Assembly: GCA_015065325.1 (NCBI GenBank) | Contig: SVQO01000002.1 | Location: 93,005 to 157,004, forward strand | DNA length: 64,000 bases | Source of the DNA: Oscillospiraceae bacterium | GTDB lineage: Bacteria > Bacillota > Clostridia > Oscillospirales > SIG627 | Direction of reading: 5' to 3' | In this document: piece after piece, positions 44,114 to 63,062 of the stretch | Position numbering within the stretch: position 1 is the stretch's first letter | Layout: the number at the start of each line of letters is the position of its first letter | Position numbers and translations under genes: made by a program | The notes under the pieces: model-generated | Seen by the model: only the letters and a program-made list of their open reading frames with translations | Told to the model about the DNA's origin: nothing | Databases searched by the model: none

Positions 44114-44156
44114 AACCGAATTTTCCATTGCAAAATAAAAAAAGCCGTGATACAAT
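44114..44156 (+). promoter_or_regulatory. Array promoter 1 with a degenerate box
   Basis: Box AACCGAATTTTCCATTG (44114..44130), TTGCAA (44128..44133), a 17-nt spacer, then TACAAT (44151..44156). Confidence 0.6.
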
Positions 44157-44185: not shown

Positions 44186-45625
44186 ATGAAAAAGATCATT
44201 GCTTTACTTTGTCTTTTATCGCTTTGCCTGCCCCTGTGCGCATGCACCTCGGAGCTGCAAGCGGAAACCGTTGACGTGAAAAAAACAGAAACGGCAAAAG
44301 AAACCAAGCAGGAGAAGAAACAGGAAAAAGGGGAGATCGTCTACCCCGCCGCCTTTGCCGTAGGCTACGCCCGCATTGATATTACGGGCTCTCTCCCCAT
44401 CCCGATCTTTGAGGACACGGGCACCAAGATCGCCGACCCCTTGTACCTGACCTGCACCGCAGTTTGGGACGGAGAACAGGTGGCTCTCTTGATGTCTGCG
44501 GATCTGCGCGGCATACAGGAAAAAGCCGTGGAAGGCACCAAGGACATGATCTACAAGCAGTTCAAAATCCCGAAGGATAATATCATCATCAATTGCACCC
44601 ACACCCACTCCGCACCGGTGGCAGGTACCGGCGGTGAAGCCTCCCGCGTTCGCTGGAATGCAAACTACTATAAGCAGCTCCCCATCGTTGTGGAAGAGGC
44701 TCTGCGCGATTTGGACGTGGTAGAAGGCGTCTTCACGGGCAAAAGCCACACCGAAAGCCTCACCTTCGTCCGCAGATATCTGATGCCCGACGGCACCTAT
44801 AAGACCCACGGAGACAAAACCGCACTGGGTCACGAAACCGAGGCGGATACCCAGCTTCAGACCCTGCGCTTTGACCGCAAGAGCAAAAAAGACGTTCTGA
44901 TGATCAATTATCAGACCCACCACTGCAGCGGAATCGGCAAGGGCAAGGTCTCCGCAGACTTCGTCGCTCCCTACCGCACCGCCGCAGAGAAGGAACTGGA
45001 CTGCCACTTTGTCTATCATCAGGGTGCAGGCGGCAATATCAATTTCATTTCCCCCATTCCCGACGAAAGAAAATATCCCAATTACATCTCCGCCGCAGAG
45101 GGCTTTATGATCGCCACCCGCGACGCCCTCTCCAAGGAAGAACCCATCCAAACGGGCAAGATCCAAATGATTACCCGCCAGCTGACCGTCACCGTAAAGA
45201 AGGATCCCCCCGAACGGGTCGAAGCAGCGAAAAAGGTTATGGAGGCAGACGAAGCCTTGCGCAGCACCCTTGCCACGCAGTACGGCTTTGAAACCTGGCG
45301 CGCCGCAAACTCCACCCTCACCCGTGCCGACAAAGGAGACACCGAGCAAATGCCCCTGACCACCATCTCCTTCGGCGAGATCGCCTTTGCCGCCGCCCCA
45401 ATTGAAATGTTCGATACCAACGGCAAACAGGTTCGCGACGGTTCCCCCTTCAAAACCACCTATATCTGTTCTCTGACCAACGGTTCCTTCGGTTACGTCC
45501 CCTCCGCGCTTGCCTTCCCCCACGGTTCCTACGAGGTGAACGCCTGCTCATACGTCCCCGGCACCGGTGAGCAGATCGCAGAAGAACTGATCAATATGCT
45601 GAACGAGTGTAAATCTGCTTCTTGA
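44186..45625 (+). CDS. HxH hydrolase-family lipoprotein, array member 1
   Basis: ATG at 44186 follows AAAGGAG. MKKIIALLCLLSLCLPLCAC lipobox and a K/E/T-rich tether. Motifs GYARIDITG, DPLYLTCTAVWDGE, NCTHTHSAP, FVRRYL, HETEADTQLQTLRFDR, GAGGNINF, PIEMFDTNGKQVR, ECKSAS end. Confidence 0.85.
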   Translation: MKKIIALLCLLSLCLPLCACTSELQAETVDVKKTETAKETKQEKKQEKGEIVYPAAFAVGYARIDITGSLPIPIFEDTGTKIADPLYLTCTAVWDGEQVALLMSADLRGIQEKAVEGTKDMIYKQFKIPKDNIIINCTHTHSAPVAGTGGEASRVRWNANYYKQLPIVVEEALRDLDVVEGVFTGKSHTESLTFVRRYLMPDGTYKTHGDKTALGHETEADTQLQTLRFDRKSKKDVLMINYQTHHCSGIGKGKVSADFVAPYRTAAEKELDCHFVYHQGAGGNINFISPIPDERKYPNYISAAEGFMIATRDALSKEEPIQTGKIQMITRQLTVTVKKDPPERVEAAKKVMEADEALRSTLATQYGFETWRAANSTLTRADKGDTEQMPLTTISFGEIAFAAAPIEMFDTNGKQVRDGSPFKTTYICSLTNGSFGYVPSALAFPHGSYEVNACSYVPGTGEQIAEELINMLNECKSAS

Positions 45626-45637
45626 AAGGAGTTTATT

Positions 45638-47077
45638 ATGAAAAAAATTATTGCTTTACTTTGTCTTTTATCCCTTTGCCTGCCGCTGTGCGCATGCGGC
45701 TCGGAGCTGCAAGCGGAAACTGTTGACGCGAAAAAAACAGAAACGGCAGAAAAAGCCACGCAGGAGAAGAAACAGGAAAAAAAGGAGATCGTCTATCCCG
45801 ACTCCTTTGCCGTAGGCTACGCCCGCGCAGATATTACGGGCTCTCTCCCCATCCCGATCTTTGAGGATGAGGGCACTTCCGTTCGCGATCCCCTGATGCT
45901 GTCCTGCACCGCAATATGGGACGGTAAACAGGCGGCGCTTCTGATGTCCGCCGACCTCCGCAGCATGAACAGAAGCGTGTTTGAAAGAAGTGCGGAGATG
46001 ATCCAAAAGCAGTTCAAAATCCCCGCGGAAAATATCATCATCAACTGCACCCATACCCACGAGGCTCCCTCTGCAGGCGGCGGAAGCGATTCGGGCCTTC
46101 GCTGGCTCGCCAATTACTACAAACTCCTGCCCGGTCTGGTAGAAGATGCTCTCCTGGATCTGGACGAGGTAGAAACGACCTACACCGGAAAAAGCTACAC
46201 CAAATCCCTCACCTTCGTGCGCCGCTATCTGTTGCCCGACGGCTCTTATAAGACCAATCCCGGTGCTCAAGCCGTAGTCGCACACGAATCCGACGCGGAC
46301 CCCGAACTGAACACCATCCGCTTTGACCGCAAAACAAAAAAGGACGTTCTGCTGGTCAACCACCAGACCCACTACGTGGGCGGTGTCGGTGAGGGCGCGG
46401 TATCCTCCGATTTCGTCGGCCCCTTCCGCGCCAAGGCTGAAAAAGAATGGGACGTTCACTTTGTTTACCATCAGGGTGCAGGCGGCAACATCAACTTCGT
46501 TTCCCCCATCCCCGGCGAAAGAATCTACTACTCCTACACCGATGCCGCAGAAGGCTATATGATCGCCACCCGCGAGGCGCTTTCTAAGGAAGAAGTGATC
46601 CAAACGGGCAAGATCCAAACCCTTGCACGCCCCATTACCGTCACCGTAAGAAAAGAGCCCGCAGAGGTGGTTGAGCTTGCAAAAAAAGTAATGGCAGCAC
46701 CCGAAAATATGCGAGGAACCCTTGCCGCACAGTACGGATTTGAATCCTGGCGTCACGCCAATTCCACCGTGGGCCGCGCGAACAAGGCAGAAACCGAGGA
46801 CCTTTCCCTGACCGCGATCTCCTTCGGCGAAATCGCTTTCTGCGCTTTCCCCTACGAAATGTTCGACACCAACGGCAAAGAGGTGCGGGACGGCTCCCCC
46901 TTCAAGACCACCTTCATTTGCTCCCTGGCAAACGGCTCCTACGGCTACATTGCTTCCGCGCTTGCCTTCCCTCACGGAACCTATGAGGTAAATGCCTGCC
47001 AGTACGTAGCGGGAACGGGTGAACAGCTTGCCGGCGCAATGCTTACCATGCTCGGCGAGTGTAAATCCGCCGTTTAA
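45638..47077 (+). CDS. HxH hydrolase-family lipoprotein, array member 2
   Basis: 12-nt gap from member 1 and a near-identical signal peptide and tether. NCTHTHEAP, FVRRYL, HESDADPELNTIRFDR, GAGGNINF, PYEMFDTNGKEVR. Confidence 0.85.
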   Translation: MKKIIALLCLLSLCLPLCACGSELQAETVDAKKTETAEKATQEKKQEKKEIVYPDSFAVGYARADITGSLPIPIFEDEGTSVRDPLMLSCTAIWDGKQAALLMSADLRSMNRSVFERSAEMIQKQFKIPAENIIINCTHTHEAPSAGGGSDSGLRWLANYYKLLPGLVEDALLDLDEVETTYTGKSYTKSLTFVRRYLLPDGSYKTNPGAQAVVAHESDADPELNTIRFDRKTKKDVLLVNHQTHYVGGVGEGAVSSDFVGPFRAKAEKEWDVHFVYHQGAGGNINFVSPIPGERIYYSYTDAAEGYMIATREALSKEEVIQTGKIQTLARPITVTVRKEPAEVVELAKKVMAAPENMRGTLAAQYGFESWRHANSTVGRANKAETEDLSLTAISFGEIAFCAFPYEMFDTNGKEVRDGSPFKTTFICSLANGSYGYIASALAFPHGTYEVNACQYVAGTGEQLAGAMLTMLGECKSAV

Positions 47078-47089
47078 CCGAGTAAATAT

Positions 47090-48532
47090 ATGAAAAGGCT
47101 GTTTGCTTTTCTTTGCCTTTGCGCAATGATTTTCCCCCTCGCCTCCTGCGCCGCCGACTCTCTTGAAACCGAAACGGTCAAGGAAGAGGCGGAGGTAAAA
47201 ACCGTGGCGAAAGAAAAAAAGACGGGAGCCCTCTTTTACCCCGACTCCTTTGCCGTCGGTTACGCCCGCGCGGATATTACGGGAACCCCTCCCCACCCCT
47301 CGCAAAGCGGTGAATTAACCGGGGTGCACGACCCGCTGATGCTGACCTGCACCGCCGTCTGGGACGGAGAACAGGCGGCTCTTATCATGAGCGCCGACGT
47401 TCTGCAGATCAATCGCGACGTACATCTTCGCCTGTGTCGGATGGCAGAGGAAAAATTCGGAATCCCCGAGGAGCGCATCATCCTCAGTGCCACCCATACC
47501 CACACCGGTCTGACCGTGGGAAACGATTCTCCCGCAGGCGCTCGCTTTCTGACCAATTTTTACAAGGTGTTTCCCCAAGTCGTTGAGGAGGCACTGCGGG
47601 ACCTGGACGAGGTAGAAGCGGCATACGCGGGAAAGGGCGAAGTAGAGGAGGGCGTGACCTTCGTCCGCCGCTATCTGATGCCCGACGGGACCTACAAGAC
47701 CCACGGAGATGAAACTGCCGTGCGGCACGAGACCGATGCGGACCGCGAGCTGAGAACCGTCCGTTTTGATCGCAAAACGAAAAAGGACGTTCTGCTGGTA
47801 AATTATCAAACCCACCACGGCGGCGCGGGAAGCGTTTATCCCGGTTGTATTTCCGCAGACTGGGTCCACCCGTTCCGTAGCAGTGCGGAACAGGAATTCG
47901 ACTGTCTCTTCTCCTACCAAAGCGGTGCGGAGGGCAACATCAATTTCGTATCCCCCATCCCGGGGGAGCGCAAATATCCCACCTTCGTCAAAGCCATCCC
48001 CGCCTTTATCACGGCGACCAAAGCTGCCCTTGAAACGGAGGAAAAAGCGGAGACGGGCAAGATCGTCTCTGCGAGCACCGTGGTCGTCGCCACCGTAAAA
48101 AAGGATACCCCCGAGCGTATCGCACGGGCACAGGAGATCTCCGGTGCGGAGAACGAGGAGAAAAAGACTTTTCTGGTAAAGCAATACGGCTTTCAATCCG
48201 AGCACGAAGCGGGAGCTGTTTTAAAGCGGAACAATCAGCTCGGCGAAACCGAGGACGTACCGCTGAATTGCATCGTCTTCGGCGACCTTGCCTTTGCCGC
48301 CTTTCCCTTCGAGCAGTTTGACACAAGCGGAAAGGAGGTTCGGGACGCCTCCCCCTACAAAATGACCTTCATTAACGGACTTTCCGGCGGTACCTACGGC
48401 TATATGCCTACCCTGGAAGCCTTCCCCCACGGCGGCTACGAGGTAGCTGTCTGTCCCTATACCCCCGGCTGTGCCGAAATGTTTACGGAAGCAATGCAAA
48501 AACTTTTGACCGAATGCAAGAATAAGGAGTGA
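47090..48532 (+). CDS. HxH hydrolase-family lipoprotein, array member 3
   Basis: Lipobox FPLASC. SATHTHTGL, FVRRYL, HETDADRELRTVRFDR, GAEGNINF, PFEQFDTSGKEVR. Confidence 0.85.
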   Translation: MKRLFAFLCLCAMIFPLASCAADSLETETVKEEAEVKTVAKEKKTGALFYPDSFAVGYARADITGTPPHPSQSGELTGVHDPLMLTCTAVWDGEQAALIMSADVLQINRDVHLRLCRMAEEKFGIPEERIILSATHTHTGLTVGNDSPAGARFLTNFYKVFPQVVEEALRDLDEVEAAYAGKGEVEEGVTFVRRYLMPDGTYKTHGDETAVRHETDADRELRTVRFDRKTKKDVLLVNYQTHHGGAGSVYPGCISADWVHPFRSSAEQEFDCLFSYQSGAEGNINFVSPIPGERKYPTFVKAIPAFITATKAALETEEKAETGKIVSASTVVVATVKKDTPERIARAQEISGAENEEKKTFLVKQYGFQSEHEAGAVLKRNNQLGETEDVPLNCIVFGDLAFAAFPFEQFDTSGKEVRDASPYKMTFINGLSGGTYGYMPTLEAFPHGGYEVAVCPYTPGCAEMFTEAMQKLLTECKNKE

Positions 48533-48537
48533 TTACA

Positions 48538-49812
48538 ATGACAATTTTTACCGTTGGCTTTGGAAGAAAACAACTGACGGGGCCCCTGCCCATCAACACA
48601 TGGAACAGCACCGCCGATACCTACCGCGACCCCCTTTATCTGACCTGCGTGGCTCTCTCCGACGGAGAAAGCACTGCGCTGATCATGAGTGCGGATGTTA
48701 TGAAGATCGACGGAGGCGCCTTTGAGGAATGTGCCAAGCGCTTGAAGGAAAAGCTTGGGATCGAGAGAAAAAGCATTCTCATCAGTGCCATCCATTCCCA
48801 TTATGCGCCCACCATCAGTCGCACCTGCCCCTGGGCAGAGAGCTTCTTTGCATCGGCTGTTGAGGTAGCAGAAAGCGCCATCGCCGATCTGGCTCCCGCC
48901 AAGGTGTTCGCGGGGAAGGGCCACACCGACTCTCTGACCTTCGTGCGCCGCTATTTGCTGGCAGACGGCACCTGGAAATTCAATCCGAGCGCCGCAGACA
49001 ACCCCGTTGCCCACGAATCCGAGGCGGACAGCGAAATGCGCACCCTACGCTTTGTCCGCGAGGGAAAAAAGGATATTCTGATGGCAAACTATCAGACCCA
49101 TTACCACGGCGGCGTCGGAAAAAACGTAATCACCGCCGACGTATTCGGAGATTTCAGAGCCCTTGCGGAAGAAGCGCTCGGCTGTGAGTTTATGTACTGC
49201 AGCGGTGCATCGGGCAATCTGAACTTCTTTTCCGTCATCCACGGCGAGAGAAAGCACCCCTCTATCGGTGCTGCGGCGGCGGAACTGCTTCGCACCGCAA
49301 AGGAATCCATTGCCTCGGAAACCGAAGTGAAAACGGGCAAGCTCGTGACCGCCACCTCCGTTTACAAGGGCAAAGTCCGCCACGATTCGGAGGAGCGCAT
49401 CGCCCAGGCCAGACAGATCCGCGATGCAGGACGGGATACCCCGGAGGGTGCCGAGCTGGTGAAAAAATTCGGTTTCGTCAACAAGTACGAGCCCGGTGCC
49501 ATTTTGGTCCGCAACAATTTGGGAGAAACGCTGGATCTGCACTTTTTCACCGTTGCCTTCGGCGACGTTGCCGTATCCGGCGTCCCCTTCGAGCAGTTTG
49601 ATACCAACGCCCAAGAGGTACGCGCCGCTTCTCCCTTTAAAATGACCTTTACTCTGTCCATGACCAACGAATCCTTCGCCTACGTGCCCTCCGCCCTTGC
49701 AGACCACCACCGTTCCTACGAGGTGGCAACCTCCAAGTTCGTTCCCGGAAGCGGTACCGAATTTGCCGCGGAGCAGCTCCGTCTTCTGGGCGAATGCAAA
49801 AGCGCCTATTAA
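48538..49812 (+). CDS. HxH hydrolase-family protein, array member 4, leaderless (no signal peptide or tether)
   Basis: ATG at 48538 is 9 nt after the AAGGAG that lies inside the last codons of member 3. The product starts MTIFTVGFGRKQLTGPLP, at the first conserved block of the family. SAIHSHYAP, FVRRYL, HESEADSEMRTLRF, GASGNLNF. Confidence 0.8.
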   Translation: MTIFTVGFGRKQLTGPLPINTWNSTADTYRDPLYLTCVALSDGESTALIMSADVMKIDGGAFEECAKRLKEKLGIERKSILISAIHSHYAPTISRTCPWAESFFASAVEVAESAIADLAPAKVFAGKGHTDSLTFVRRYLLADGTWKFNPSAADNPVAHESEADSEMRTLRFVREGKKDILMANYQTHYHGGVGKNVITADVFGDFRALAEEALGCEFMYCSGASGNLNFFSVIHGERKHPSIGAAAAELLRTAKESIASETEVKTGKLVTATSVYKGKVRHDSEERIAQARQIRDAGRDTPEGAELVKKFGFVNKYEPGAILVRNNLGETLDLHFFTVAFGDVAVSGVPFEQFDTNAQEVRAASPFKMTFTLSMTNESFAYVPSALADHHRSYEVATSKFVPGSGTEFAAEQLRLLGECKSAY

Positions 49813-49859
49813 AGCAAAATAACCGTACAGACAGAAATAGAAAGAAAGGACTGTCTCCC

Positions 49860-51317
49860 ATGAAAAGGCTTATTGCACTTCTCTGCCTTTTGGCGATCTG
49901 TCTGCCCCTGTGCGCTTGCTCCTCCTCCCTGGAGAGCACCGCCACCGTACCCGCAGAAAAGGCGACGGAAGAACAAAAGACCGAAAGCACCAAGAAGGAA
50001 AACGACGAGATCGTATATCCCAAGGATTGCTTTTCCGTCGGCTACGCCCGCGTGGATATCACACCCAAGGAGGTGCTTCCCATTTTTGAGGGCACCGGTG
50101 ATTCTGCCCACGATCCTCTCCAGCTGACCGTCACCGCCCTTTGCGACGGAGAAAGTGCCGCGCTCTTGATCTCCGTGGACGTTCGGTCCATTCGCATCGG
50201 CATCGCGGAGGCCTGTCAGCGTCTTATCGAGCTGAGTGTAAAGGTGCCCGCGGATCGGGTGCTGATCAACGCCACCCATACCCATTCCGCTCCCGCTCCC
50301 GGCTTTGACGCGGAAAAGGAGACCCAATGGGTCAACAACGTTTTATACAAGCAGCTTATCGTCGCCGTAAAGGAGGCACTGCGTGATCTGACTCCCGCCG
50401 AGGCCTATACGGGCGTCTCCCATACCGACGGGATCACCTTCGTCCGCCGTTATCTGAAGGCAAACGGAAAATATCAGACCAACGCCTCCGCTGCGGACAA
50501 CCCTGTCGCACACGAATCCGTTGCCGACAACGAAATGCGGGTGATCCGCTTTGAGCGCGAAGGGAAAAAGGACGTTCTGATGGTCAATTACCAGACCCAC
50601 TACGGCGGAGCTCCCTCCCTCTACCCCAACCAATACTCCGCGGACTTCGTCCACACCTTCCGTCAGGCGGCAGAAACGGAGCTGGATTGCCTCTTTACCT
50701 ACCACAGCGGCGCCTCCGGCAACCTGAACTTCAATTCTCCCATTTCCGGTGAAAAGAAATGCGCCAATTTCGTGGACGCCACCGAGGAGCTGATGCGAGC
50801 GGCAAAGGACGCCGTCGCCAAGGAAGAAAAGGCAGTGACCGACAAGCTCCGTTCCGCTTCCTCCAAATACGCCGCAAGCGTGATAAAAGAATCCGAGGAG
50901 CGTCTTACCCACGCGAAAGAGGTCAACTCCCTTCGAAGCGCAGGCAAGGACTTTCATTCCCTGCTGAACAAATACGGCTTTGCTTCCAAATACGAGGCAA
51001 CCGCCGTGATCATGCGTGCGGGACTGGGTGAAAATCCGGAGATCCCCTTTACCGCCATTTCCTGCGGCGATCTTGCCTTTGTCTCCGCCCCTTACGAAAT
51101 GTTTGATACCAACGGACAGGAGGTCAGAGCCGCATCCCCCTTTAAAACCACCTTTATCTGCTCTTTGACCAACGGCTCCTTCGGCTACGTGCCATCCGCT
51201 CTTGCCGTTCCCCACGGCTCCTACGAGGTGATCATCACCTACTTTGAATACGGAAGCGCAGAGAAATTCGTCGCCGAAATGGTACGACTGCTGGGCGAGT
51301 GTAAAAACGCAAACTGA
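49860..51317 (+). CDS. HxH hydrolase-family lipoprotein, array member 5
   Basis: ATG at 49860 (MKRLIALLCLLAICLPLCAC). NATHTHSAP, FVRRYL, HESVADNEMRVIRFER, GASGNLNF, PYEMFDTNGQEVR. Confidence 0.85.
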   Translation: MKRLIALLCLLAICLPLCACSSSLESTATVPAEKATEEQKTESTKKENDEIVYPKDCFSVGYARVDITPKEVLPIFEGTGDSAHDPLQLTVTALCDGESAALLISVDVRSIRIGIAEACQRLIELSVKVPADRVLINATHTHSAPAPGFDAEKETQWVNNVLYKQLIVAVKEALRDLTPAEAYTGVSHTDGITFVRRYLKANGKYQTNASAADNPVAHESVADNEMRVIRFEREGKKDVLMVNYQTHYGGAPSLYPNQYSADFVHTFRQAAETELDCLFTYHSGASGNLNFNSPISGEKKCANFVDATEELMRAAKDAVAKEEKAVTDKLRSASSKYAASVIKESEERLTHAKEVNSLRSAGKDFHSLLNKYGFASKYEATAVIMRAGLGENPEIPFTAISCGDLAFVSAPYEMFDTNGQEVRAASPFKTTFICSLTNGSFGYVPSALAVPHGSYEVIITYFEYGSAEKFVAEMVRLLGECKNAN

Positions 51318-51326
51318 ATCAATACC

Positions 51327-51359
51327 GAAAACGGAAGATTTTTCTTCCGTTTTTCTTTT
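51327..51359 (+). terminator. Array terminator (AACGGAAG-type hairpin) after member 5
   Basis: Stem AACGGAAGA / TCTTCCGTT with loop TTTT, then a T-run. Confidence 0.8.
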
Positions 51360-51370
51360 CGAATCGGTAA

Positions 51371-51416
51371 AAATTCACTAAATATTCACCCTTTTTCTTC
51401 TCTCTCTTGGTAACAT
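51371..51416 (+). promoter_or_regulatory. Array promoter region upstream of member 6 (diverged box)
   Basis: AAATTCACTAAATATTCACC resembles the AAC(C/T)GAATATTCATTG box. A TAACAT -10-like hexamer sits at 51411..51416, and the -35 is unclear. Confidence 0.35.
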
Positions 51417-51451
51417 ATACATATACCTTCATATAAAAGGAGAAGTGTTTC

Positions 51452-52897
51452 GTGAAAAAGCTCATGGCGTTTCTTTGTCTTTTGGCGATCTGTCTGCCTC
51501 TTGCCGCTTGCGCAGACCCTTCCCCGGAGAGTACGGAAAACAAGCCAGCGGAAAAGCCGACGGAAGTAAAAAAGACACAAGCAGTTGAATCGGTCAAGGA
51601 TTTTAATATAGAAACGGATCTGCCCGAGGGCTTTGCCGTAGGCTTTGGCAGAGTGGATATCTCCGGTCCCTTGCCCGTAGACGTATGGGAGGGCGAGGCA
51701 ACCAAGGTCCGCGACCCCATCTACCTGACCTGCACCGCCGTTTCCGACGGTCAAAATGTTGCCCTGCTTATGGCGGCAGATACCCGCGGCATCAAGCTCT
51801 CCGCCTATGAGAGCGTTGCCAAAGCAATGAATAAGAAATACGGCATTCCCAGAGAAAACGTCCTCATCAACGTAACCCACTCCCACCACGCTCCCACCAT
51901 CGGCTCCAACGCCCGTTGGCTGACGAATTTTCACAAGCTGGTCCCCGTGGCAGTGGAGGAAGCTCTGCGGGATCTGACGCCCGCCAAAGCGTATGCAGGC
52001 AAGGGCTACACCGAGAGTCTGACCTTCGTGCGCCGCTATCTGCTGGAGGACGGCAGCTATATGACCAACGCCAACGCCGCCGATAAGCCCGTGGCACATG
52101 AGACCGAGGCGGATAACGAGCTGCGCACCGTCCGCTTTGAGCGGGAGGGCAAAAAGGACGTTCTGATGGTCAACTACCAGACCCACTATATGGGCGGTAT
52201 CAACAAAGCGGAGCTTTCCGCAGATATTTTCGGAGCCTTTCGCAAGAGCGTGGAAAAGGAGCTGGGCTGTCTTTTCGTTTATTACAGCGGCTCCTCGGGC
52301 AATCTGAATTGTAATTCCCCCATTGAAGGAGAACGGATCTATCACACCTTTGAGGAAGCTGCGGTGGAATTCACCCGCGCCGTCAAGACGGCACTGGAGA
52401 ATGAAGCCGAAGTCGCCACAGGCAAGGTCGTTGCAAAAACCTCCGTCTATAAGGGAACCGTGCTCCACGACGATCCCGCCCTTGTAGAGAAAGCGAAGGA
52501 GATCGCCGACGCAGGCAGAGACACGGCTCAGGGAAAAGCCCTGATCGCCAAATACGGCTTTATCTCCAAGTATGCGGCAACTGCCGTGGTGACCCGCGCC
52601 AATATGGGCGAGACCCAAGATCTGAACTTTTTTGCCGTTTCCTTCGGCGACATTGCTTTCGCCACCGCACCCTACGAGCAGTTTGATACCAACGGCAGAG
52701 AGGTTCGCGACGCATCTCCCTTCCCCGTAACCTTTACGCTGTCCATCACCAACGAGTCCAACGGATACGTTCCCTCTGCCTACGCTTTCGGGCATTACAG
52801 CTACGAGGTAGCCATTTCTCGCTTCATTCCCGGGAGCGGAGAGGAATTTGCACGTGAGCAGGTTCGCCTGCTGGACGAATGTAAAGTAGCATCATAA
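51452..52897 (+). CDS. HxH hydrolase-family lipoprotein, array member 6
   Basis: GTG start after AAAGGAG. Lipobox LPLAAC. GFGRVDISGPLP, NVTHSHHAP, FVRRYL, HETEADNELRTVRFER, GSSGNLNC. Confidence 0.85.
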   Translation: MKKLMAFLCLLAICLPLAACADPSPESTENKPAEKPTEVKKTQAVESVKDFNIETDLPEGFAVGFGRVDISGPLPVDVWEGEATKVRDPIYLTCTAVSDGQNVALLMAADTRGIKLSAYESVAKAMNKKYGIPRENVLINVTHSHHAPTIGSNARWLTNFHKLVPVAVEEALRDLTPAKAYAGKGYTESLTFVRRYLLEDGSYMTNANAADKPVAHETEADNELRTVRFEREGKKDVLMVNYQTHYMGGINKAELSADIFGAFRKSVEKELGCLFVYYSGSSGNLNCNSPIEGERIYHTFEEAAVEFTRAVKTALENEAEVATGKVVAKTSVYKGTVLHDDPALVEKAKEIADAGRDTAQGKALIAKYGFISKYAATAVVTRANMGETQDLNFFAVSFGDIAFATAPYEQFDTNGREVRDASPFPVTFTLSITNESNGYVPSAYAFGHYSYEVAISRFIPGSGEEFAREQVRLLDECKVAS

Positions 52898-52910
52898 AAA
52901 GGAGTTCATT

Positions 52911-54350
52911 ATGAAAAAAATCGTTGCAATTTTCTGTCTTTTGGCGCTTTGTCTGCCCCTGTGTGCCTGTTCTTCCTCCTCTTTGGAAAGCGCCGAGCCA
53001 AAGCCCGCGCAGACCGCCACCGCAGACGAGAAAGAAACCAAAGCCCCCGCAAAGCTTGAAAAATTCGATATGGAAAAAGATCTGCCCGAGAACTTTTCCG
53101 TAGGCTTCGGCAGAGTAGATATTTCCGGTCCCCTGCCCGTAGGGATCTGGGAGGGCGAGGCGACCAAGGTCCGCGACCCCCTTTACCTGACCTGTATCGC
53201 CGTTTCCGACGGTGAAAACGTAGCGCTTCTGATGAGTGCCGACGCAATGGGAATTCAGCTTTCCGTTTACAACCAATGTGCAAAAAAAGTGATGCAGGAA
53301 TATGGCATTCCCGCGGAGAATCTGCTCATCAACGTGACCCACTCCCATTCCGCGCCCAGCATCGGCTCCAACGACCGCTGGCTGAAAAGCTTTTATGAAA
53401 AATTCGACGACGCGGTAGAGCAGGCACTCCACGACCTTGCACCTGCAAAGGCTTACGCGGGCAAGGGCTACACCGACTCTCTGAACTTCGTGCGCCGCTA
53501 TCTGATGCCCGACGGCTCCTGGGTTACCAATGCAGGCTCCACCGCCGTTGCCCACGAATCCGAGGCGGACAACGAGGTCCGTACCCTTCGCTTTGAGCGC
53601 GAGGGCAAAAAGGATATTCTGATGACCAACTACCAGTCCCACTATATGGGCGGCGCGGGTGAAGAAAATCTTTCCGCAGATATTTTCGGAGAATTCCGCA
53701 AGGAATCGGAAAAGGAGCTGGACGTGCTTTTCGTCTATTTCAGCGGCTCCAGCGGCAATCTGAACTTTAATTCCGCCATTCCCGGTGAGAGAAAGTACTT
53801 CAACTGGAATGAAGGTGCCAAGGAATTCGTCCGCGCCGTCAAGGTCGCTCTGGAGGGTGAAGCGGAGGTCGCCACAGGCAAGATCGTGGCAAAAGCCTCC
53901 GTCTACCAGGCAAAGGTCAAGCAGGACGATCCCGAGCGCATCAAACACGCCGAGGAGATCGCCGCCACCACCGACGAAAAGCTGAAAGCGGAAAAGATCC
54001 GCCTGTACGGCTTCCTTTCCAAATACGAGGCAAGTGCCGTGGTGACCCGCGCAAGCTTGGGACCCACCAAGGATCTTCACTTCTTTGCCGTCTCCTTCGG
54101 CGACGTCGCCTTTTCCACCGCTCCCTTCGAGCAGTTTGACACCAACGGGCAGGAGGTCAGAGCCGCATCCCCCTTCAAGATGACCTTTACGCTGTCCATG
54201 ACCAACGAGTCCAACAACTACGTACCCTCCGCCCTGGCTGAGGAGCATTACAGCTACGAGGTTTCCACCTGCCGCTTTGAAAAGGGCAGCGGAACCGCCT
54301 TTGCAAACGAGCAAATCCGTCTTCTGGGCGAATGCAAAAGCGCCTATTAA
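52911..54350 (+). CDS. HxH hydrolase-family lipoprotein, array member 7
   Basis: 13-nt gap from member 6. Lipobox LPLCAC. GFGRVDISGPLP, NVTHSHSAP, FVRRYL, HESEADNEVRTLRFER, GSSGNLNF. Confidence 0.85.
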   Translation: MKKIVAIFCLLALCLPLCACSSSSLESAEPKPAQTATADEKETKAPAKLEKFDMEKDLPENFSVGFGRVDISGPLPVGIWEGEATKVRDPLYLTCIAVSDGENVALLMSADAMGIQLSVYNQCAKKVMQEYGIPAENLLINVTHSHSAPSIGSNDRWLKSFYEKFDDAVEQALHDLAPAKAYAGKGYTDSLNFVRRYLMPDGSWVTNAGSTAVAHESEADNEVRTLRFEREGKKDILMTNYQSHYMGGAGEENLSADIFGEFRKESEKELDVLFVYFSGSSGNLNFNSAIPGERKYFNWNEGAKEFVRAVKVALEGEAEVATGKIVAKASVYQAKVKQDDPERIKHAEEIAATTDEKLKAEKIRLYGFLSKYEASAVVTRASLGPTKDLHFFAVSFGDVAFSTAPFEQFDTNGQEVRAASPFKMTFTLSMTNESNNYVPSALAEEHYSYEVSTCRFEKGSGTAFANEQIRLLGECKSAY

Positions 54351-54396
54351 AGCAAAATAACCGTATAAACAGAATAGAATGAAAGGACTGTCTTCC

Positions 54397-55884
54397 ATGA
54401 AAAAGCTTATTGCACTTCTCTGCCTTTTGGCAATCTGTCTTCCCTTGTGCGCCTGCGCCTCCCCCTCCTTGAAAAACACCGAGGGAAAGCCCGCGCAGAC
54501 CGCCACCGTCGAAGAACAGAAGCAGAACACCCCCGCTGTGAAAACCGAAAAATTCAAAATTCCCGAGGATCTGCCCGAGGGCTTTGCCGTAGGCTACGGC
54601 ATCATTGATATTACGGGCAAGACCCCCATCTCTTACTTCGGCGGCATTGCCGACGGCGTTCACGATCCGCTGATGCTGACCTGCACCGCCGTTTCCGACG
54701 GTGAGACCGTGGCACTGATCATGACCGCGGACCTGAAGAAAATGCTGGACAACGTATCCGTCAAGTCCCTGGAGATCATTGAGAAGCAGTTCGGCATTCC
54801 CGCTTCCAACGTGATCCTCAGCTGTACCCACTCCCATTCCGCACCCGACGCAGGCTCCTCTGCCGAGGGCAATCCCCAGTGGATGCAACAATATTACAAG
54901 CAGCTTCCTCTGGCAGTCGATGCCGCTCTGAGGGATCTGGACGTAGTGGAAAAGGCATACGCGGGTACGGCAAATACCGAGCATCCCATCGGCTTCGTTC
55001 GCCGTTATCTGCTGGCAGACGGCACCTATAAAATGAACCCCTCTACCTCCGACAATCCCGTGTCACACGAATCCGTTGCCGATCCCGAGCTGAGAACCAT
55101 CCGCTTCGACCGCAAGAACAAAAAGGACGTTCTTCTGGTCAACTTCCAGACCCACTACGGCGGAGCAACCAGCACCTACCCCAGAAAGCTTTCCGCCGAC
55201 TTCGTTCACCCCTTCCGTCAGGAGGCACAGAAAGCGTACGACTGTCTGTTTGCTTATTACAGCGGCGCCTCCGGCAACATCAACTTTAATTCCGCCATCC
55301 CCGGTGAGCGTTACTACGAAACCTGGCTGGATGCCATCGACGGCTTTATGGAAACCACCGACGCCGCTTTGAAGGCAGAGGAGGAGATCAGTCTGGGCAA
55401 GATCCAAACCGCAAGAAGCACGGTTGCCGCCACCGTCCGCCACGATCCCGAGGAACGGGTCAAGCAGGCGCAGGAGATCGCTGATGCCGGCTACGACGAG
55501 ACCGAGGCAGGACGTGCTCTGATGGAAAAATACGGCTTTGACGGCTATTACGACGCTTCCTTTACCGTCACCCGCTCCAAGCTGGGAGAAAGCATGGACG
55601 TTGCACTGAACGCCATTGCCTTCGGCGACGTTGCCTTTACCGGCTATCCCTATGAAATGTTCCACGAAAACGGCAAGGAGGTCAGAGACGCCTCCCCCTA
55701 TAAAATGACCTTTATCTGTTCTCTGTCTCTGGGAGCCTTCGGTTATATTCCCTCCGCACTGGGCTATTCCCACGGCGGCTACGAAACCTACAACTGCCGC
55801 TTCGTCGGAGGTACCGGTGAACAACTGGCGCAGGAATCCGTCCGTCTTCTGAACGAATGTAAAAGTGCAGGAGGATCCAAATGA
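54397..55884 (+). CDS. HxH hydrolase-family lipoprotein, array member 8
   Basis: ATG at 54397 (MKKLIALLCLLAICLPLCAC). EKFKIPEDLPEGFAVGYG, SCTHSHSAP, FVRRYL, HESVADPELRTIRFDR, GASGNINF. Confidence 0.85.
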   Translation: MKKLIALLCLLAICLPLCACASPSLKNTEGKPAQTATVEEQKQNTPAVKTEKFKIPEDLPEGFAVGYGIIDITGKTPISYFGGIADGVHDPLMLTCTAVSDGETVALIMTADLKKMLDNVSVKSLEIIEKQFGIPASNVILSCTHSHSAPDAGSSAEGNPQWMQQYYKQLPLAVDAALRDLDVVEKAYAGTANTEHPIGFVRRYLLADGTYKMNPSTSDNPVSHESVADPELRTIRFDRKNKKDVLLVNFQTHYGGATSTYPRKLSADFVHPFRQEAQKAYDCLFAYYSGASGNINFNSAIPGERYYETWLDAIDGFMETTDAALKAEEEISLGKIQTARSTVAATVRHDPEERVKQAQEIADAGYDETEAGRALMEKYGFDGYYDASFTVTRSKLGESMDVALNAIAFGDVAFTGYPYEMFHENGKEVRDASPYKMTFICSLSLGAFGYIPSALGYSHGGYETYNCRFVGGTGEQLAQESVRLLNECKSAGGSK

Positions 55885-56744
55885 ATTATTGGACGCAAAG
55901 CAGTAAAAACATTTACGTCGCCGCACACCGCGGCTGGAGCAAAAAATACCCCGAAAACACCATGCTCGCCTTCCGCAAGGCACTGGAGCTGGGCGTGGAT
56001 CAACTGGAGACCGACGTACGCATTACCCGTGACGGAGAACTGGTTCTGATCCACGACGCCACGGTGGACCGCACCACAAGCGGCAGCGGCAAGGTGTGCG
56101 ATATGACGCTTGCCGAGCTGCAGGAACTGGATGCCGGCTCTTGGAAGGATCCCGCCTTCGCAGGGGAAAGGATCCCCAAATTTACGGATCTGCTGGAGCT
56201 TGTAAAGGACCACCCCACCATCACGCTGGACATCGAATTGAAGGAATATCCCGTGGACGGCATCCCCCCCATCAAGCTGCACGCCGAGGTGAAGGAACAC
56301 CCCGTTGACGGTTCGGATGAGACCGCCTTTACCATTTGCGACCGCATCTTGAAAACCATCGACGACTACGGCTTTACCGACAGAGTCGTCATCAACACCT
56401 GGAGCGGAAGGCTCCACGAATACATTTATGAAAAATACGGAAACAAGTACCGTCTGCATCTGTATTTCCCCTCTCCCCTGATGGGAAAAATGACTCTGGA
56501 GCCCTATTCCTTCGGCTATTGCTGCTGTATGTTCGCCTCTGACGGACAGCCCGGCGACCGACGGGTCGCCACCCGCGAGGAATGTGCCGAAATGCTGGCA
56601 AAGGGCATTCGCCCCTGGGCGGGTACCGCGGTAAAAACTCCCGAAATGGTGGACGTTGCCATAGCCTCGGCAGTAGAGCTGATCACCTGCGACGATCCTG
56701 AGCTGATCCTGAATTGTCTGCGGGAAAGAGGCTACCACAAATAG
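55881..56744 (+). CDS. Glycerophosphodiester phosphodiesterase (GDPD family), no signal peptide
   Basis: ATGA overlap with member 8. The HRGWSKKYPENTMLAF and ETDVRITRDGELVLIHDATVDRTT blocks are the GDPD catalytic signature. Confidence 0.85.
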   Translation: MNYWTQSSKNIYVAAHRGWSKKYPENTMLAFRKALELGVDQLETDVRITRDGELVLIHDATVDRTTSGSGKVCDMTLAELQELDAGSWKDPAFAGERIPKFTDLLELVKDHPTITLDIELKEYPVDGIPPIKLHAEVKEHPVDGSDETAFTICDRILKTIDDYGFTDRVVINTWSGRLHEYIYEKYGNKYRLHLYFPSPLMGKMTLEPYSFGYCCCMFASDGQPGDRRVATREECAEMLAKGIRPWAGTAVKTPEMVDVAIASAVELITCDDPELILNCLRERGYHK

Positions 56745-56770
56745 TTTTTCAATAAGGAGACCACGCTTTT

Positions 56771-58225
56771 ATGAAGAAGTTCATTGTCATTCTTTGTTTG
56801 CTGTCCCTGTGTCTTCCCCTGTGTGCCTGTTCTTCCGCCTCTCTGGAACCGGAAGCACCCGCAAAAAAAGAGGAGACGGCGGAAAAGACACAACAGAAAG
56901 ACAAGGGACCCCTCACCTATCCCAAGGGCGTTTTTTCCGTGGGCTACGGCATCGGTGATATCACCTGTACCACGCCCCTGCCTATCTATAACGGCATCGC
57001 GCATCAGATCCACGACCCGCTGATGCTTACCGTCACCGCCTTTTGCGACGGACAGGATAACGTCGCTTTGGTTATGAGTGCCGACCTGAAGGGAATGCAC
57101 CGTCCCGTCTTCGAGCGGACTGCTTCCATTATCGAAACGAAATTCCACATTCCCAGAGAAAATATCATTCTCAGCTGTACCCATACCCATTCTGCACCCA
57201 CCGTCGGTGAAACCAATGCGGAGGTCATGCGCTGGGCGCCCATTTATTACCAAACCTTCCCCGCCATCGTGGAGGAGGCGCTCCGCGATCTTGATCCCGT
57301 GGAAGCTGCCTACGGCGGCAAGTCTCAGGCAGAGAGTATTTCCTTCGTGCGCCGCTATCTGCTGGAGGACGGCACCTATAAGATGAACCCCTCCGCCGCC
57401 GATAAGCCCGTGGAGCACGAATCCGTTGCCGACAACGAGCTGAGAACCGTCCGCTTTGACCGCAAGAACAAGAAGGACGTTCTCATGGTCAACTACCAGA
57501 CCCACTACGGCGGCGCTACCTCCAAATATCCCGAAAAGATCTCCGCAGACTTTATCGCCCCCTTCCGCAAGCAAGCCGAAGCGAAATGGGACTGTCTGTT
57601 CGCCTATCAGAGCGGTGCAGGCGGAGACGTGAATTTTAATTCGCTCATCCCCGGTGAAAAAATCTACGCAAATTACGAGATCGCCGTGGAAAAGGGCTTT
57701 ATACCCGCCACCGAACGGGCACTGGCAAATGAAGAAAAACTGGAGCTGGGCACCATCCGCGGCGCCGAAGGATTTTCTACCGCCACCGTCAAGAAGGACG
57801 ATGCACAGCGCGTTGCCCACGCGCGCAAGGTCCACGCACTGGAGGACGGAGAGCAAAAAACGCAACTGATGAAGGAATACGGCTTTTCCACCAAGTACGA
57901 GCCGGGTATGGTGATCAAACGCAATGCCGAAATGGGCGATACGGAGGACGTTCCTCTGAGCTGTATCACCTTCGGTGACCTTGCCTTTGCCGCCTTCCCC
58001 TACGAAATGTTCCACGAAAACGGAAAGCAGGTGCGGGACGCCTCGCCCTACAAGATGACCTTTATCAACTCCATCGCCGGCGGCAGCTACGGCTACATTC
58101 CTACCAAAGAGGCATTCCCCCACGGCGGTTATGAAGTTGGCGTCTGCCGCTATACCGAGGGCTGCGGTGAACAATTTGCGGCATTTATGCTGGACCTTTT
58201 AAATCAATGTAAAAATCCCGCGTAG
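56771..58225 (+). CDS. HxH hydrolase-family lipoprotein, array member 9
   Basis: 26-nt gap after the GDPD gene. Lipobox LPLCAC. SCTHTHSAP, FVRRYL, HESVADNELRTVRFDR, GAGGDVNF, PYEMFHENGKQVR. Confidence 0.85.
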   Translation: MKKFIVILCLLSLCLPLCACSSASLEPEAPAKKEETAEKTQQKDKGPLTYPKGVFSVGYGIGDITCTTPLPIYNGIAHQIHDPLMLTVTAFCDGQDNVALVMSADLKGMHRPVFERTASIIETKFHIPRENIILSCTHTHSAPTVGETNAEVMRWAPIYYQTFPAIVEEALRDLDPVEAAYGGKSQAESISFVRRYLLEDGTYKMNPSAADKPVEHESVADNELRTVRFDRKNKKDVLMVNYQTHYGGATSKYPEKISADFIAPFRKQAEAKWDCLFAYQSGAGGDVNFNSLIPGEKIYANYEIAVEKGFIPATERALANEEKLELGTIRGAEGFSTATVKKDDAQRVAHARKVHALEDGEQKTQLMKEYGFSTKYEPGMVIKRNAEMGDTEDVPLSCITFGDLAFAAFPYEMFHENGKQVRDASPYKMTFINSIAGGSYGYIPTKEAFPHGGYEVGVCRYTEGCGEQFAAFMLDLLNQCKNPA

Positions 58226-58231
58226 AAACAG

Positions 58232-58270
58232 AAACGGAAGTTTTCGGACTTCCGTTTTTTTGTTTTTTTT
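58232..58270 (+). terminator. Array terminator after member 9
   Basis: Stem AAACGGAAGT / ACTTCCGTTT with loop TTTCGG, then a long T-run. Confidence 0.85.
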
Positions 58271-58311
58271 ACCGAATGTTCATTGCTTTCCTTTCATTTT
58301 TTTGTTACAAT
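58270..58311 (+). promoter_or_regulatory. Array promoter with box, upstream of member 10
   Basis: Box TACCGAATGTTCATTG (58270..58285), TTGCTT (58283..58288), a 17-nt spacer, then TACAAT (58306..58311, preceded by TGT). Confidence 0.6.
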
Positions 58312-58343
58312 AAGAAAAAATTCCCTCAACAAGGAGGTTTACA

Positions 58344-59828
58344 ATGAAACGAATTCTGGCACTTGCTTTGGCACTTTTCACCTTGCTTCCGCTGTGTGCC
58401 TGCACTTCCGGTTCTCTGGAAAGCACGGCTCCCGCAGAAAATGCAAAGACCGCAGAGCAGAAGAAAACGGCTGAAAAAGCACCTGAAAAGACCGAGCTTG
58501 AAAAATTTGATATGGAAAAGGATCTGCCCGAGGGTTATGCGGTAGGCTACGGCATCGCCGACGTAACGGGTACGGTCTTCCCGCTCTCCTACTACGGGGG
58601 AAGTGCAGTGGGCGCATCGGATCCTTTGATGCTGACCTGCGTGGCAATGTCCGACGGCGAAAACGTTGCTCTGGTCATGACCATAGATCTGAAGAAGATG
58701 TACGCTAAGGTATTCAACCAGTCTCTGAGCATCATTGAGAAGAACTTCGGCATCCCCGCGGAAAACGTGATCATCAGCTCCACCCACTCCCATTCCGCTC
58801 CCGATGCGGGTGAGGACGTTCCCGGCAACATTCAGTGGGTACAACAGTACTACAAAAAGCTTTACGCGGCAGTAAACGAAGCGCTCCACGATCTGGATCC
58901 GGTGGAACACGTCTTTACCGGCAAGGCAAACGAGGAGCACCCCATCGGCTACGTACGCCGCTACTATATGGCAGACGGTTCCTTTAAGACCATTGCCTCC
59001 TCCAATCCCTGCAAGGATTTCGTTGCTCACGAATCCGTTGCCGACCCCGAATTCCGCACCATTCGCTTTGACCGCAAGAACAAGAAGGACGTTCTCATGG
59101 TCAACTTCCAGACCCACTACGGCGGCCAGGTTCCCGCCAATATGCTTTCCGCGGACTTTGTCCACCCCTTCCGCAAGCAAGCACAGGAAGAATGGGATTG
59201 CCTCTTCGCTTATTACAGCGGTGCAGGCGGAAACATTAATTTCAAATCCGAAATTCCCGGAGAGCGTTACTACGAGGAGCCCTCGGATGCCATTGCAGAA
59301 TTTATGGGAAGCACCCAACGGGCAATGGATGCAGAGGAGGAAGCAGCCCTCGGCAAGGTGTCCTGCGCACGCAGTATGTATCCCGGCAAGGTCCGCCACG
59401 ATCCCGAGGAACGGGTCAAGCAAGCGCAGGAGGTAGTATCTGCAGGATACGAAACCGAAAAGGGTATTTCTCTGATGGCGCAGTACGGCTTTGACAGCCA
59501 TTTTGAGCCCGCCTTTATCGTAACCCGCTCCAGGCTGGGCGAGACCCTTGATATTCCTATGACCGCAGTTTCCTTCGGTGAGATCGCCTTCACCGGCCAC
59601 CCCTACGAAATGTTCCACGAAAACGGTAAGGAGGTTCGCGACGGTTCTCCCTTCAAAACCACCTTTATCTGTTCCCTCTCCGGTGATGCTCTGGGGTATA
59701 TCCCTTCCGCACTGGGATATTCCAACGGTGGCTACGAAACCTTCAACTGCCGCTTTGCCGCAGGAACGGGCGAGGAGCTGGCGCAGGAAGCAATTCGGCT
59801 TCTGAACCAGTGCAAAAACGCAGCCTGA
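58344..59828 (+). CDS. HxH hydrolase-family lipoprotein, array member 10
   Basis: AAGGAGG RBS. Lipobox LLPLCAC. EKFDMEKDLPEGYAVGYG, SSTHSHSAP, YVRRYY, HESVADPEFRTIRFDR, GAGGNINF. Confidence 0.85.
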   Translation: MKRILALALALFTLLPLCACTSGSLESTAPAENAKTAEQKKTAEKAPEKTELEKFDMEKDLPEGYAVGYGIADVTGTVFPLSYYGGSAVGASDPLMLTCVAMSDGENVALVMTIDLKKMYAKVFNQSLSIIEKNFGIPAENVIISSTHSHSAPDAGEDVPGNIQWVQQYYKKLYAAVNEALHDLDPVEHVFTGKANEEHPIGYVRRYYMADGSFKTIASSNPCKDFVAHESVADPEFRTIRFDRKNKKDVLMVNFQTHYGGQVPANMLSADFVHPFRKQAQEEWDCLFAYYSGAGGNINFKSEIPGERYYEEPSDAIAEFMGSTQRAMDAEEEAALGKVSCARSMYPGKVRHDPEERVKQAQEVVSAGYETEKGISLMAQYGFDSHFEPAFIVTRSRLGETLDIPMTAVSFGEIAFTGHPYEMFHENGKEVRDGSPFKTTFICSLSGDALGYIPSALGYSNGGYETFNCRFAAGTGEELAQEAIRLLNQCKNAA

Positions 59829-59840
59829 TCCAAAAATCCC

Positions 59841-59873
59841 AAACGGAAGTCTTCGGACTTCCGTTTCTTTTGT
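59841..59873 (+). terminator. Array terminator after member 10
   Basis: Stem AAACGGAAGTC / GACTTCCGTTT with loop TTCG, then TTTCTTTT. Confidence 0.8.
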
Positions 59874-59880
59874 AAAAATT

Positions 59881-59921
59881 AACTGAATATTCATTGTATT
59901 TTTCGCGTTTTTTGGTAAAAT
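59881..59921 (+). promoter_or_regulatory. Array promoter with palindromic box, upstream of member 11
   Basis: Box AACTGAATATTCATTG (59881..59896) with the perfect palindrome TGAATATTCA (59884..59893). TTGTAT (59894..59899), a 16-nt spacer, then TAAAAT (59916..59921). Confidence 0.65.
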
Positions 59922-59950
59922 GAGATCAGAAACGACCTAGGAGGTTTGCT

Positions 59951-61426: not shown

Positions 61427-61432
61427 ATCCCC

Positions 61433-63050: not shown

Positions 63051-63062
63051 GCCCGATCCTTG

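Follow-up and report, generated by a model that had tools for sequence, protein, structure and literature searches.

Concerted evolution by ectopic gene conversion is known in bacteria from the tuf genes and the rRNA operons, in which short non-reciprocal tracts are exchanged in a manner that is RecA-dependent in the studied cases. In Mycoplasma, the vsp locus of M. bovis and the vlp locus of M. hyorhinis encode phase- and size-variable surface antigens from genes with a highly conserved 5′ cassette made up of the upstream region and the signal peptide, and variation there involves site-specific recombination or repeat slippage. In the lpl cluster of Staphylococcus aureus, the unit of evolution comprises the 3′ region of one gene, the intergenic region and the next gene's 5′ region (PMC2568036). 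Excision of a circle followed by re-integration has been proposed as a route of rearrangement for this cluster, and crossovers in a 132-nt central conserved region shuffle half-genes, the 5′ and 3′ halves of one ORF being phylogenetically incongruent (PMC2568036). Here we describe an array of 13 tandem paralogous lipoprotein-type genes (m1-m13; 44186..64000, + strand) in a 64,000-nt stretch of DNA from an Oscillospiraceae bacterium (assembly GCA_015065325.1, contig SVQO01000002.1, positions 93,005 to 157,004; hereafter the window), in which a patch of ~148 nt at the boundary of m4 and m5 was very probably copied from the boundary of m7 and m8 by non-allelic homologous recombination, i.e., by ectopic gene conversion or an equivalent pair of crossovers.

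The array resembles the tuf and rRNA cases in its short, non-reciprocal homogenised tracts, which are detected as mosaic identity and phylogenetic incongruence. The classical cases homogenise whole genes that have to remain identical, whereas here the gene bodies have diverged and only the ends, the spacer and the signal peptide are exchanged; moreover, gene order and operon structure changed along with the event. With vsp and vlp it shares tandem lipoprotein genes whose upstream region and signal peptide are near-identical among otherwise divergent members, and it differs from them in that the proteins are enzyme-like, no population heterogeneity was seen and a Pfam scan of ten ORFs upstream of the array, in 30420..44054, turned up neither a recombinase nor a transposase. 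A programmed antigenic- or phase-variation cassette system was rejected because all members are full-length, expressed-type genes, the scanned ORFs hold no recombinase and the contigs of other assemblies are identical. The lpl cluster is likewise a tandem array of paralogous lipoprotein genes in which recombination between paralogues leads to apparent conversions and translocations, and the junction-spanning unit has its counterpart here in an unbroken 35 nt + 47 nt + 66 nt. This unit of ~150 nt is much smaller than that of lpl and ends at a C-terminal box and a lipobox, and the species compared here are ~20% diverged in protein sequence, while the lpl study compared strains of one species.

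Results

A near-identical segment spans the m4/m5 and m7/m8 junctions

A blastn self-comparison of the window showed that the m4/m5 junction matches the m7/m8 junction (Table 1) over 148 nt at 92.6% identity, with 10 mismatches and 1 gap (E 6e-51), and that the first 50 nt (49778..49827) are identical. An earlier note on this DNA had counted about ten differences and a 1-nt indel between 49779..49915 and 54317..54452, with an initial identical run of 49 nt; over these 137 versus 136 nt we found 8 mismatches and one 1-nt indel. The upstream 35 nt of the tract encode RLLGECKSAY* and the downstream 66 nt encode the signal peptide to just past the lipobox cysteine. The junction repeat is the second strongest repeat within the array and the only self-match there that spans two genes, the other 5′-terminal match (m1/m2) beginning at the start codon. 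When the two-gene blocks were aligned and identity was scored in sliding segments of 50 nt, the junction reached 88-94%, in comparison to 62-70% directly upstream and 48-56% directly downstream. The gene bodies that flank the junction are only 50-80% identical, so that the contrast between junction and coding sequence drawn by the earlier note is borne out. The terminal sequence LLGECKSAY, which the same note had ascribed to m4, m6 and m7 alike, is indeed common to m4 and m7, but m6 ends LLDECKVAS.

Both spacers carry the motif GAAAGGACTG close to the ribosome-binding site (RBS). The underlying 13-nt pattern GAAAGGACTGYYY occurs three times versus 0.03 expected, its third copy lying upstream of m13, where its recurrence had been noticed before; the run AGAATGAAAGGACTG at this site is common with the m7/m8 spacer.

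The excess similarity was assessed by simulations in which each site keeps its family-wide match rate and each pair its overall identity (400 simulations, 66 gene pairs). Both the 5′ tract of m5-m8 (z=9.3) and the 3′ tract of m4-m7 (z=8.4) ranked among the four strongest pair-specific tracts of the 66 pairs, each with P=0.0025 per pair, which is the floor for 400 simulations. In addition, third codon positions in the tract were identical at 19/22 + 11/12 sites, versus 224/460 + 212/412 in the rest of the same gene pairs.

Breakpoints and direction of copying

The window was compared with the syntenic arrays of eight uncultured Clostridia related to it (L002-L005 and L008-L011) and with two partial loci. 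The nine genomes (window plus eight relatives) have 1:1 orthologous arrays: each of m1-m13 has its counterpart in L002, and in the shorter loci this holds for all members covered. Orthologues mostly share 70-85% protein identity (62-76% for m6 counterparts, 72-80% for those of m4, m5, m7 and m8). Because m4, m5, m7 and m8 each have a separate orthologue in the relatives, these four genes predate the junction event.

A codon alignment of the 3′ ends showed that window m4 tracks its orthologues up to ...GCCGCGGAGCAGCT at 49777 and from there on equals window m7. The last 35 nt of m4 are 100% identical to window m7 versus 51-66% to six m4 orthologues, whereas for the preceding 210 nt the order is reversed, with 72% identity to window m7 versus 78-86% to m4 orthologues. 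At the other end, the first 66 nt of m5 are 91% identical to window m8 versus 67-80% to m5 orthologues, and the mature part of m5 is 58% identical to window m8 versus about 69-75% to m5 orthologues; after the lipobox cysteine, window m5 reads as its L002 orthologue (...KTESTKKE..IVYP). A conversion tract across the junction, one of the two explanations that had been put forward for the repeat, finds its support here: the segment is phylogenetically incongruent with both flanks and has sharp ends, at 49777/49778 and at ~49925.

The m7 orthologues end in GECKNAY* (L002) and NECKSAY* (L009) where window m7 has GECKSAY*, and the window m7/m8 spacer has AGC.(G)AAAACA.AGAAAGGA in common with the corresponding spacers of L003, L004 and L010. 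The m4 orthologues end in QTCKEEN*, MECKNQ*, EKCKQES*, KQCKQAN*, KACKREN* and KECKNQ*. Because the m7 end and the m7/m8 spacer agree with the relatives while the m4 orthologues end differently, the comparison indicates that the m7/m8 boundary is the original and served as donor, and that the m4/m5 boundary is the copy. The exchange was non-reciprocal, as the m7 3′ end keeps the orthologous state and the window and its relatives have the same member set. As judged from these alignments, the patch alters only the last 11 residues of m4 and no residue of mature m5.

Gene order in the related arrays

The order of genes around the recipient junction was also compared. In L003, L005, L008, L010 and L011, m4 is followed by a long spacer of 132-155 nt and then by m6, m5, m7, m8 and a glycerophosphodiester phosphodiesterase (GDPD) gene. 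L009 has the long spacer (147 nt) after m3, has no m4 and otherwise continues with m6, m5, m7, m8 and GDPD; the contig of L004 begins at m6 and goes on with m5, m7, m8 and GDPD. The order in L002 is m4, long spacer (161 nt), m5, m6, m7, m8, and that in the window is m4, 47 nt, m5, long spacer, m6, m7, 46 nt, m8. The ancestral order is m4 (or m3), terminator/promoter cassette, m6, m5, m7, m8, GDPD, and seven relatives have kept it. The spacer after m4 measures 132-161 nt and has a hairpin and a U run in L002, L003, L005, L008, L010 and L011; it is 47 nt long in the window alone, and the sequence of this 47-nt spacer was absent from all relatives compared. Because the relatives have the cassette directly after m4 and m5 further downstream, the adjacency of m4 and m5 is new and specific to the lineage of the window.

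A single relocation of m5 common to the window and L002 was rejected, as this pair received 0/200 bootstraps in a neighbour-joining tree of the gene bodies; for this reason m5 is treated as having changed place independently in the two lineages. In L002, the m5/m6 spacer with the m6 signal peptide (8493..8626) is ~81% identical, in a gapped alignment, to its own m7/m8 spacer with the m8 signal peptide (11387..11520), so that the m7/m8 junction may have been a donor in L002 as well, in this case at the opposite flank of the relocated m5. Broken members were also observed among the relatives: in L010 the m9 orthologue is divided between two ORFs (13753..15151), and L005 has a 240-aa m2-like fragment (4485..5207) followed by an m1-like remnant.

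Terminator/promoter cassettes and predicted operon structure

The long spacer between m5 and m6 in the window holds a terminator-plus-promoter cassette (Table 1) in which a hairpin at 51327..51354 (-15.4 kcal/mol, z -3.1) is followed by a U run and by a promoter/operator-like module at 51365..51416. This cassette is 92% and 90% identical to the post-m4 cassettes of L008 and L010, and 80-84% identical to the other cassettes of the window; it corresponds to the one that stands directly after m4 (m3 in L009) in the relatives. In the conserved long-spacer cassette, a hairpin of the form AAACGGAAG-loop-CTTCCGTTTTT with its U run is followed by GTAAAAATTCACCAAATATTCACCC...TTGGTAACATA. Cassettes of this type stand before m1 (weaker), m6, m10, m11, m12 and m13, and terminators follow m5, m9, m10, m11 and m12. 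No terminator hairpin, promoter-like module or stable RNA fold (z -1.3) was found in the m4/m5 spacer.

In the relatives, m5 is predicted to lie within a cassette-driven operon m6-m5-m7-m8-GDPD-m9. In the window, m5 would have lost this operon and would now be the last gene of an operon m1-m5, translated from the copied RBS. The patch would replace or bypass the ancestral terminator/promoter cassette and so remove an operon boundary.

The intrinsic-terminator hairpins after m5, m9, m10 (variant), m11 and m12 are near-identical (AACGGAAG-loop-CTTCCGTTTTT) and lie at 51330..51354, 58233..58259, 59841..59866, 61438..61461 and 63064..63090. A strict terminator pattern gave 5 matches versus 0 expected, two of them being both strands of one site, which leaves four sites, all inside the array. 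The promoter/operator-like module, GTAAAAATTMACYRAATATTCAYY-N17-19-T(G)GTAAMAT, includes a direct repeat of ~AAWTTCAC spaced ~10 nt (AAATTCAC-N2-AATATTCAC) and was located at 44103..44156, 51365..51416, 58259..58311, 59870..59922, 61479..61531 and 63122..63174. The module may be an activator site; an AraC-family regulator gene (41031..41912) neighbours the array.

Exchange at gene ends recurs in the family

Tracts of this kind have arisen independently in the relatives as well. Junction-spanning or 5′-terminal tracts were among the top-ranked internal repeats in most relatives, junction-spanning ones being present in L005, L008, L009 and L010. Between the m5/m7 and m7/m8 junctions of L005 identity is 98.5% over 67 nt, and in L008 the m1/m2 junction matches the m2/m3 junction (91.7% over 133 nt), next to a 734-nt tract; L009 has a tract of 737 nt. 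The first 184 nt of m5 and m8 are 95% identical in L010, the 5′ ends of m2 and m3 are 98.7% identical over 75 nt in L011, and L003 has a tract of 85% over 192 nt. Within the initial 60 nt, identity averages 68.6% for orthologues and 65.0% for same-genome paralogues, and for 39/90 genes the best match of the signal-peptide DNA is a paralogue in the same genome and not one of the up to eight orthologues. In the simulations described above, high scores were also obtained in the window for an m7/m10 linker tract (z=12.3) and for a 230-nt 5′ tract of m1 and m2 (z=12.2). The latter pairs 44186..44415 with 45638..45867, which are 91% identical versus 75% DNA identity for the genes overall.

When genes were split, N-half and C-half led to the same orthologue in every gene that could be split, the exceptions being some copies of the recent m1/m2 pair and, in L002 and L004, the last gene, which was poorly matched; m13 was not among the references, and about 20 genes could not be split, including most m6 and several m4 and m7 copies. 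Exchange is confined to gene ends, and the diverged enzyme bodies show none. Shuffling of the lpl kind, at a central conserved region, was rejected because the N- and C-halves of nearly every testable body give the same orthologue. A conserved central box does exist in the array (RFDRKNKKDVLMVNYQTHYGG, up to 98% nt identity).

The linker behind the signal peptide shows a pattern of its own. Seven of the twelve secreted paralogues have a linker that ends in (E)KFxxxxDLPEG directly before the mature domain, and the 57-nt segments concerned start at 51590 (m6), 53052 (m7), 54541 (m8), 58494 (m10), 60098 (m11), 61722 (m12) and 63372 (m13). Every orthologue with a readable linker in the eight related genomes is of the (I/V)xYP type, and in the window YP is retained by m1, m2, m3, m5 and m9. 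The pattern suggests a genome-specific linker variant that was spread over seven genes by conversion, possibly under selection.

Occurrence of the junction in other assemblies

The source of the window is a metagenome-assembled genome (locus tags E7580_013xx-014xx). The exact m5 protein was found on 23 contigs read from ENA, JGI and NCBI assemblies, with the same neighbours on 22/23. Three contigs from ENA and JGI assemblies (L001, L012 and L013), which cover 21.4 kb, 13.5 kb and 3.0 kb of the window, match it at 100% identity; L001 and L012 carry both junctions and L013 carries the m4/m5 junction. An exact-pattern scan of metagenome contigs for the junction core GCCTATTAAAGCAAAATAACCGTA gave no match, a result that is uninformative since the JGI contig L012 carries both copies. 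A scan of genome contigs with m4 returned three loci only, with no close relative among them.

Array proteins and neighbouring genes

The array paralogues are 40-71% identical to one another in protein sequence, and 12/13 members (all but m4) begin with a lipoprotein signal peptide of the type MKK...LPLCAC. The best array score against the neutral/alkaline ceramidase family (Pfam PF04734) was 25.9 bits, for the N-terminal part only, and did not reach the gathering threshold of 32.1; a profile of 12 members matched human neutral ceramidase (4wgk) with E 2.5e-8 over ~190 residues, and a search of the array proteins against NCBIfam gave no match. By these criteria the proteins appear to be distant, uncharacterised relatives of ceramidases, enzyme-like and not demonstrated ceramidases. 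An m4-type protein without signal peptide (422-426 aa, start M..FSVGYGR) was observed in L002, L003, L005, L006, L008, L010 and L011, and L009 has no member of the m4 subfamily. Because the signal-peptide-free form is conserved across relatives, m4 seems to represent a cytoplasmic subfamily, not a truncated pseudogene.

Table 1. Coordinates of the junction copies, array members and associated features in the window
Feature	Position	Strand	Description
Recipient junction copy (j')	49778..49925	+	last 35 nt of m4, 47-nt spacer, first 66 nt of m5
Donor junction copy (j)	54316..54462	+	last 35 nt of m7, 46-nt spacer, first 66 nt of m8
m4/m5 spacer	49813..49859	+	47 nt, non-coding, Shine-Dalgarno-like AAAGGA
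m7/m8 spacer	54351..54396	+	46 nt; 4 mismatches and 1 indel relative to the m4/m5 spacer
Third copy of RBS-proximal motif	63213..63225	+	upstream of m13
Terminator-plus-promoter cassette	51318..51451	+	between m5 and m6
m1	44186-45625	+	
m2	45638-47077	+	
m3	47090-48532	+	
m4	48538-49812	+	424 aa from ATG at 48538; ceramidase-like paralogue without signal peptide
m5	49860-51317	+	lipoprotein; signal peptide of m8 type, mature part orthologous to m5 of relatives (72-79% aa)
m6	51452-52897	+	
m7	52911-54350	+	lipoprotein; 3′ end supplies the upstream side of junction copy j
m8	54397-55884	+	lipoprotein; signal peptide supplies the downstream side of junction copy j
GDPD gene	55881-56744		between m8 and m9
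m9	56771-58225	+	
m10	58344-59828	+	
m11	59951-61426	+	
m12	61572-63050	+	
m13	63228 to beyond window end	+	

A fourteenth ceramidase-like family member lies ~4.6 kb upstream of the array (38025..39590, - strand) and has short tracts of 89-92% identity in common with m4 and m5. The region 30420..44054, upstream of the array, holds this gene together with an NAD synthase, an oxidoreductase and a PnrA-type ABC transporter. The transporter region contains two adjacent PnrA/Bmp-type ABC substrate-binding paralogues (34212..35489 and 35634..37007, - strand; 83% identity over 753 nt), which are adjoined by ABC ATPase and permease genes. Elsewhere in the window, tandem repeats were observed at 6340..7195 (period ~153 nt, ~92% identity), inside a long ORF (6069..8315 or 6219..8357), and at 2434..2757 (period ~107 nt, 97-98% identity).

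Discussion

The near-identity of two gene junctions, between bodies that have diverged, is best accounted for by copying of the m7/m8 boundary onto the m4/m5 boundary. In this scenario, m5 would have moved upstream of the terminator/promoter cassette by unequal crossovers, or by excision of a circle and re-integration, at the conserved terminal boxes, and the m7/m8 junction would have been copied onto the new m4/m5 boundary during this rearrangement or afterwards. The copied patch extends from the start of the conserved C-terminal box (RLLGECKSAY*) through the spacer to the lipobox cysteine of the next signal peptide. Weak hints suggest that the relocation of m5 itself used crossovers in the terminal boxes: window m5 ends GCA AAC TGA, like L008 m4 (GCA AAC TAA) and unlike any m5 orthologue, and the terminal box of window m6 opens with GTTCGCCT, a start that it shares with several m5 orthologues. 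The exchanges would cluster at gene ends, it seems likely, because the best homology is found there and because the ends are interchangeable, leaving the mature enzyme untouched.

Several points weigh against this interpretation. The differences between the two copies are unevenly spread, with 0 in the first 50 nt and 10 in the next 98 nt; calculated by hand, the probability of this, (98/148)^10, is ~0.016. Such a spread is not what a single event would predict, and it suggests a second, later conversion or a constraint on the coding box. The next relatives are ~80% identical in protein sequence, and the three contigs of the same organism that were compared at the DNA level are identical to the window; the relocation may have preceded the conversion, or both may have formed one combined event. 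Both copies could, in principle, stem from a third donor outside the sample, and the proposed co-transcription of m5 with m1-m4 is predicted from sequence motifs.

A different route to the same sequence is that the m4/m5 junction travelled with the translocated m5, from an m6/m5 or m5/m7 junction that had already been homogenised with m7/m8. The L005 and L010 tracts described above show homogenisation of this kind, as one joins the m5/m7 and m7/m8 junctions and the other the 5′ ends of m5 and m8. The hybrid terminal boxes of window m5 and m6 are such as crossovers there would give, and the translocation-by-circle model published for the S. aureus lpl cluster would yield exactly boxes of this form (PMC2568036). 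However, the hints at the 3′ ends rest on fewer than 10 nt each and more events are needed, so that we consider this route unlikely, with some real chance of being correct. It is a variant of the copying explanation, since the sequence still derives from the m7/m8 junction by recombination.

Selection in place of recombination would account for the repeat if both junctions retained a common cis-acting element, acting in translation initiation, RNA processing or as a regulatory RNA, together with a signal peptide under purifying selection. The threefold occurrence of the RBS-proximal motif is in keeping with such an element, and the family's signal peptides resemble one another in amino acid sequence. 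The m7/m8 spacers of the eight relatives, however, are 16-33 nt long and unlike in sequence, none of them has the 47-nt spacer, and synonymous positions are identical within the tract. Paralogous signal-peptide DNA averages 65% identity, and only 2.2% of pairs reach 90%. A structured cis-regulatory RNA at the junction was rejected, as the spacers and tracts fold no better than shuffled sequences (z -0.5, +0.9, -1.3 and +0.7) and no Rfam family matched at the junctions at E<=1. Functional constraint is on this evidence a quite improbable source of the repeat.

The earlier note had offered a two-gene segmental duplication, in which m4-m5 and m7-m8 descend from one duplicated pair whose bodies then diverged, as the other possible origin. 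It is true that m4 and m7 belong to the same subtype (56% aa identity) and that their 3′ parts are locally 76-84% identical. Against a common origin of the pairs, m5 and m8 share only 49% aa identity and each is closer to another member (m5 to m13, 56% aa; m8 to m10, 66% aa), and each of the four genes has a 1:1 orthologue of its own in the relatives whose locus reaches that position. Moreover, m4 and m5 are not adjacent in relatives, the m4 orthologues lack the GECKSAY end, and neutral sites, i.e., third codon positions and spacer, hardly differ within the tract, in contrast to their saturation in the bodies. This origin does not stand up to the comparison, and we regard it as very improbable.

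That a chimeric read join of paralogous boundaries produced the m4/m5 junction during metagenome assembly is hardly credible, even though the array is repetitive and the genome metagenome-assembled, since the run of exact identity (50 nt) is shorter than the reads and the final k-mer (k141, inferred from contig names), the two copies differ at 10 sites, and both the exact m5 protein, i.e., patch plus m5 body, and identical DNA recur in the other assemblies with the neighbours reported above.

Copying of the m7/m8 boundary onto the m4/m5 boundary therefore remains the preferred explanation. In kind, the patch belongs with the known cases of ectopic gene conversion within bacterial multigene families, and it calls for no new mechanism. 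It provides a well-polarised example of a short recombination patch across a gene boundary, with donor, recipient and both breakpoints placed within a few bases. It also illustrates how an array of tandem paralogues may be rewired, a gene having apparently crossed a terminator/promoter cassette into another transcription unit with its mature protein unchanged. The two-gene-spanning unit of evolution described for S. aureus lpl would hereby be extended to a different phylum-level setting and to a smaller unit. On the practical side, the finding advises caution in orthology calling, in classification by signal peptide and in the assembly of metagenome-assembled genomes wherever such arrays occur.

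A broader reading can be offered only tentatively, as one that is possible but that we would not yet favour: in this clade of uncultured Clostridia, the C-terminal box, spacer and signal peptide together may form a portable recombination cassette by which bodies are re-ordered between operons with mature proteins unaltered. Two lineages show independent moves of m5, and in the genome of the window selection-driven conversion seems to have carried the linker variant to seven of the twelve secreted paralogues. If this were true, concerted evolution in the family would be compartmentalised, the gene ends being homogenised while the catalytic bodies diversify.

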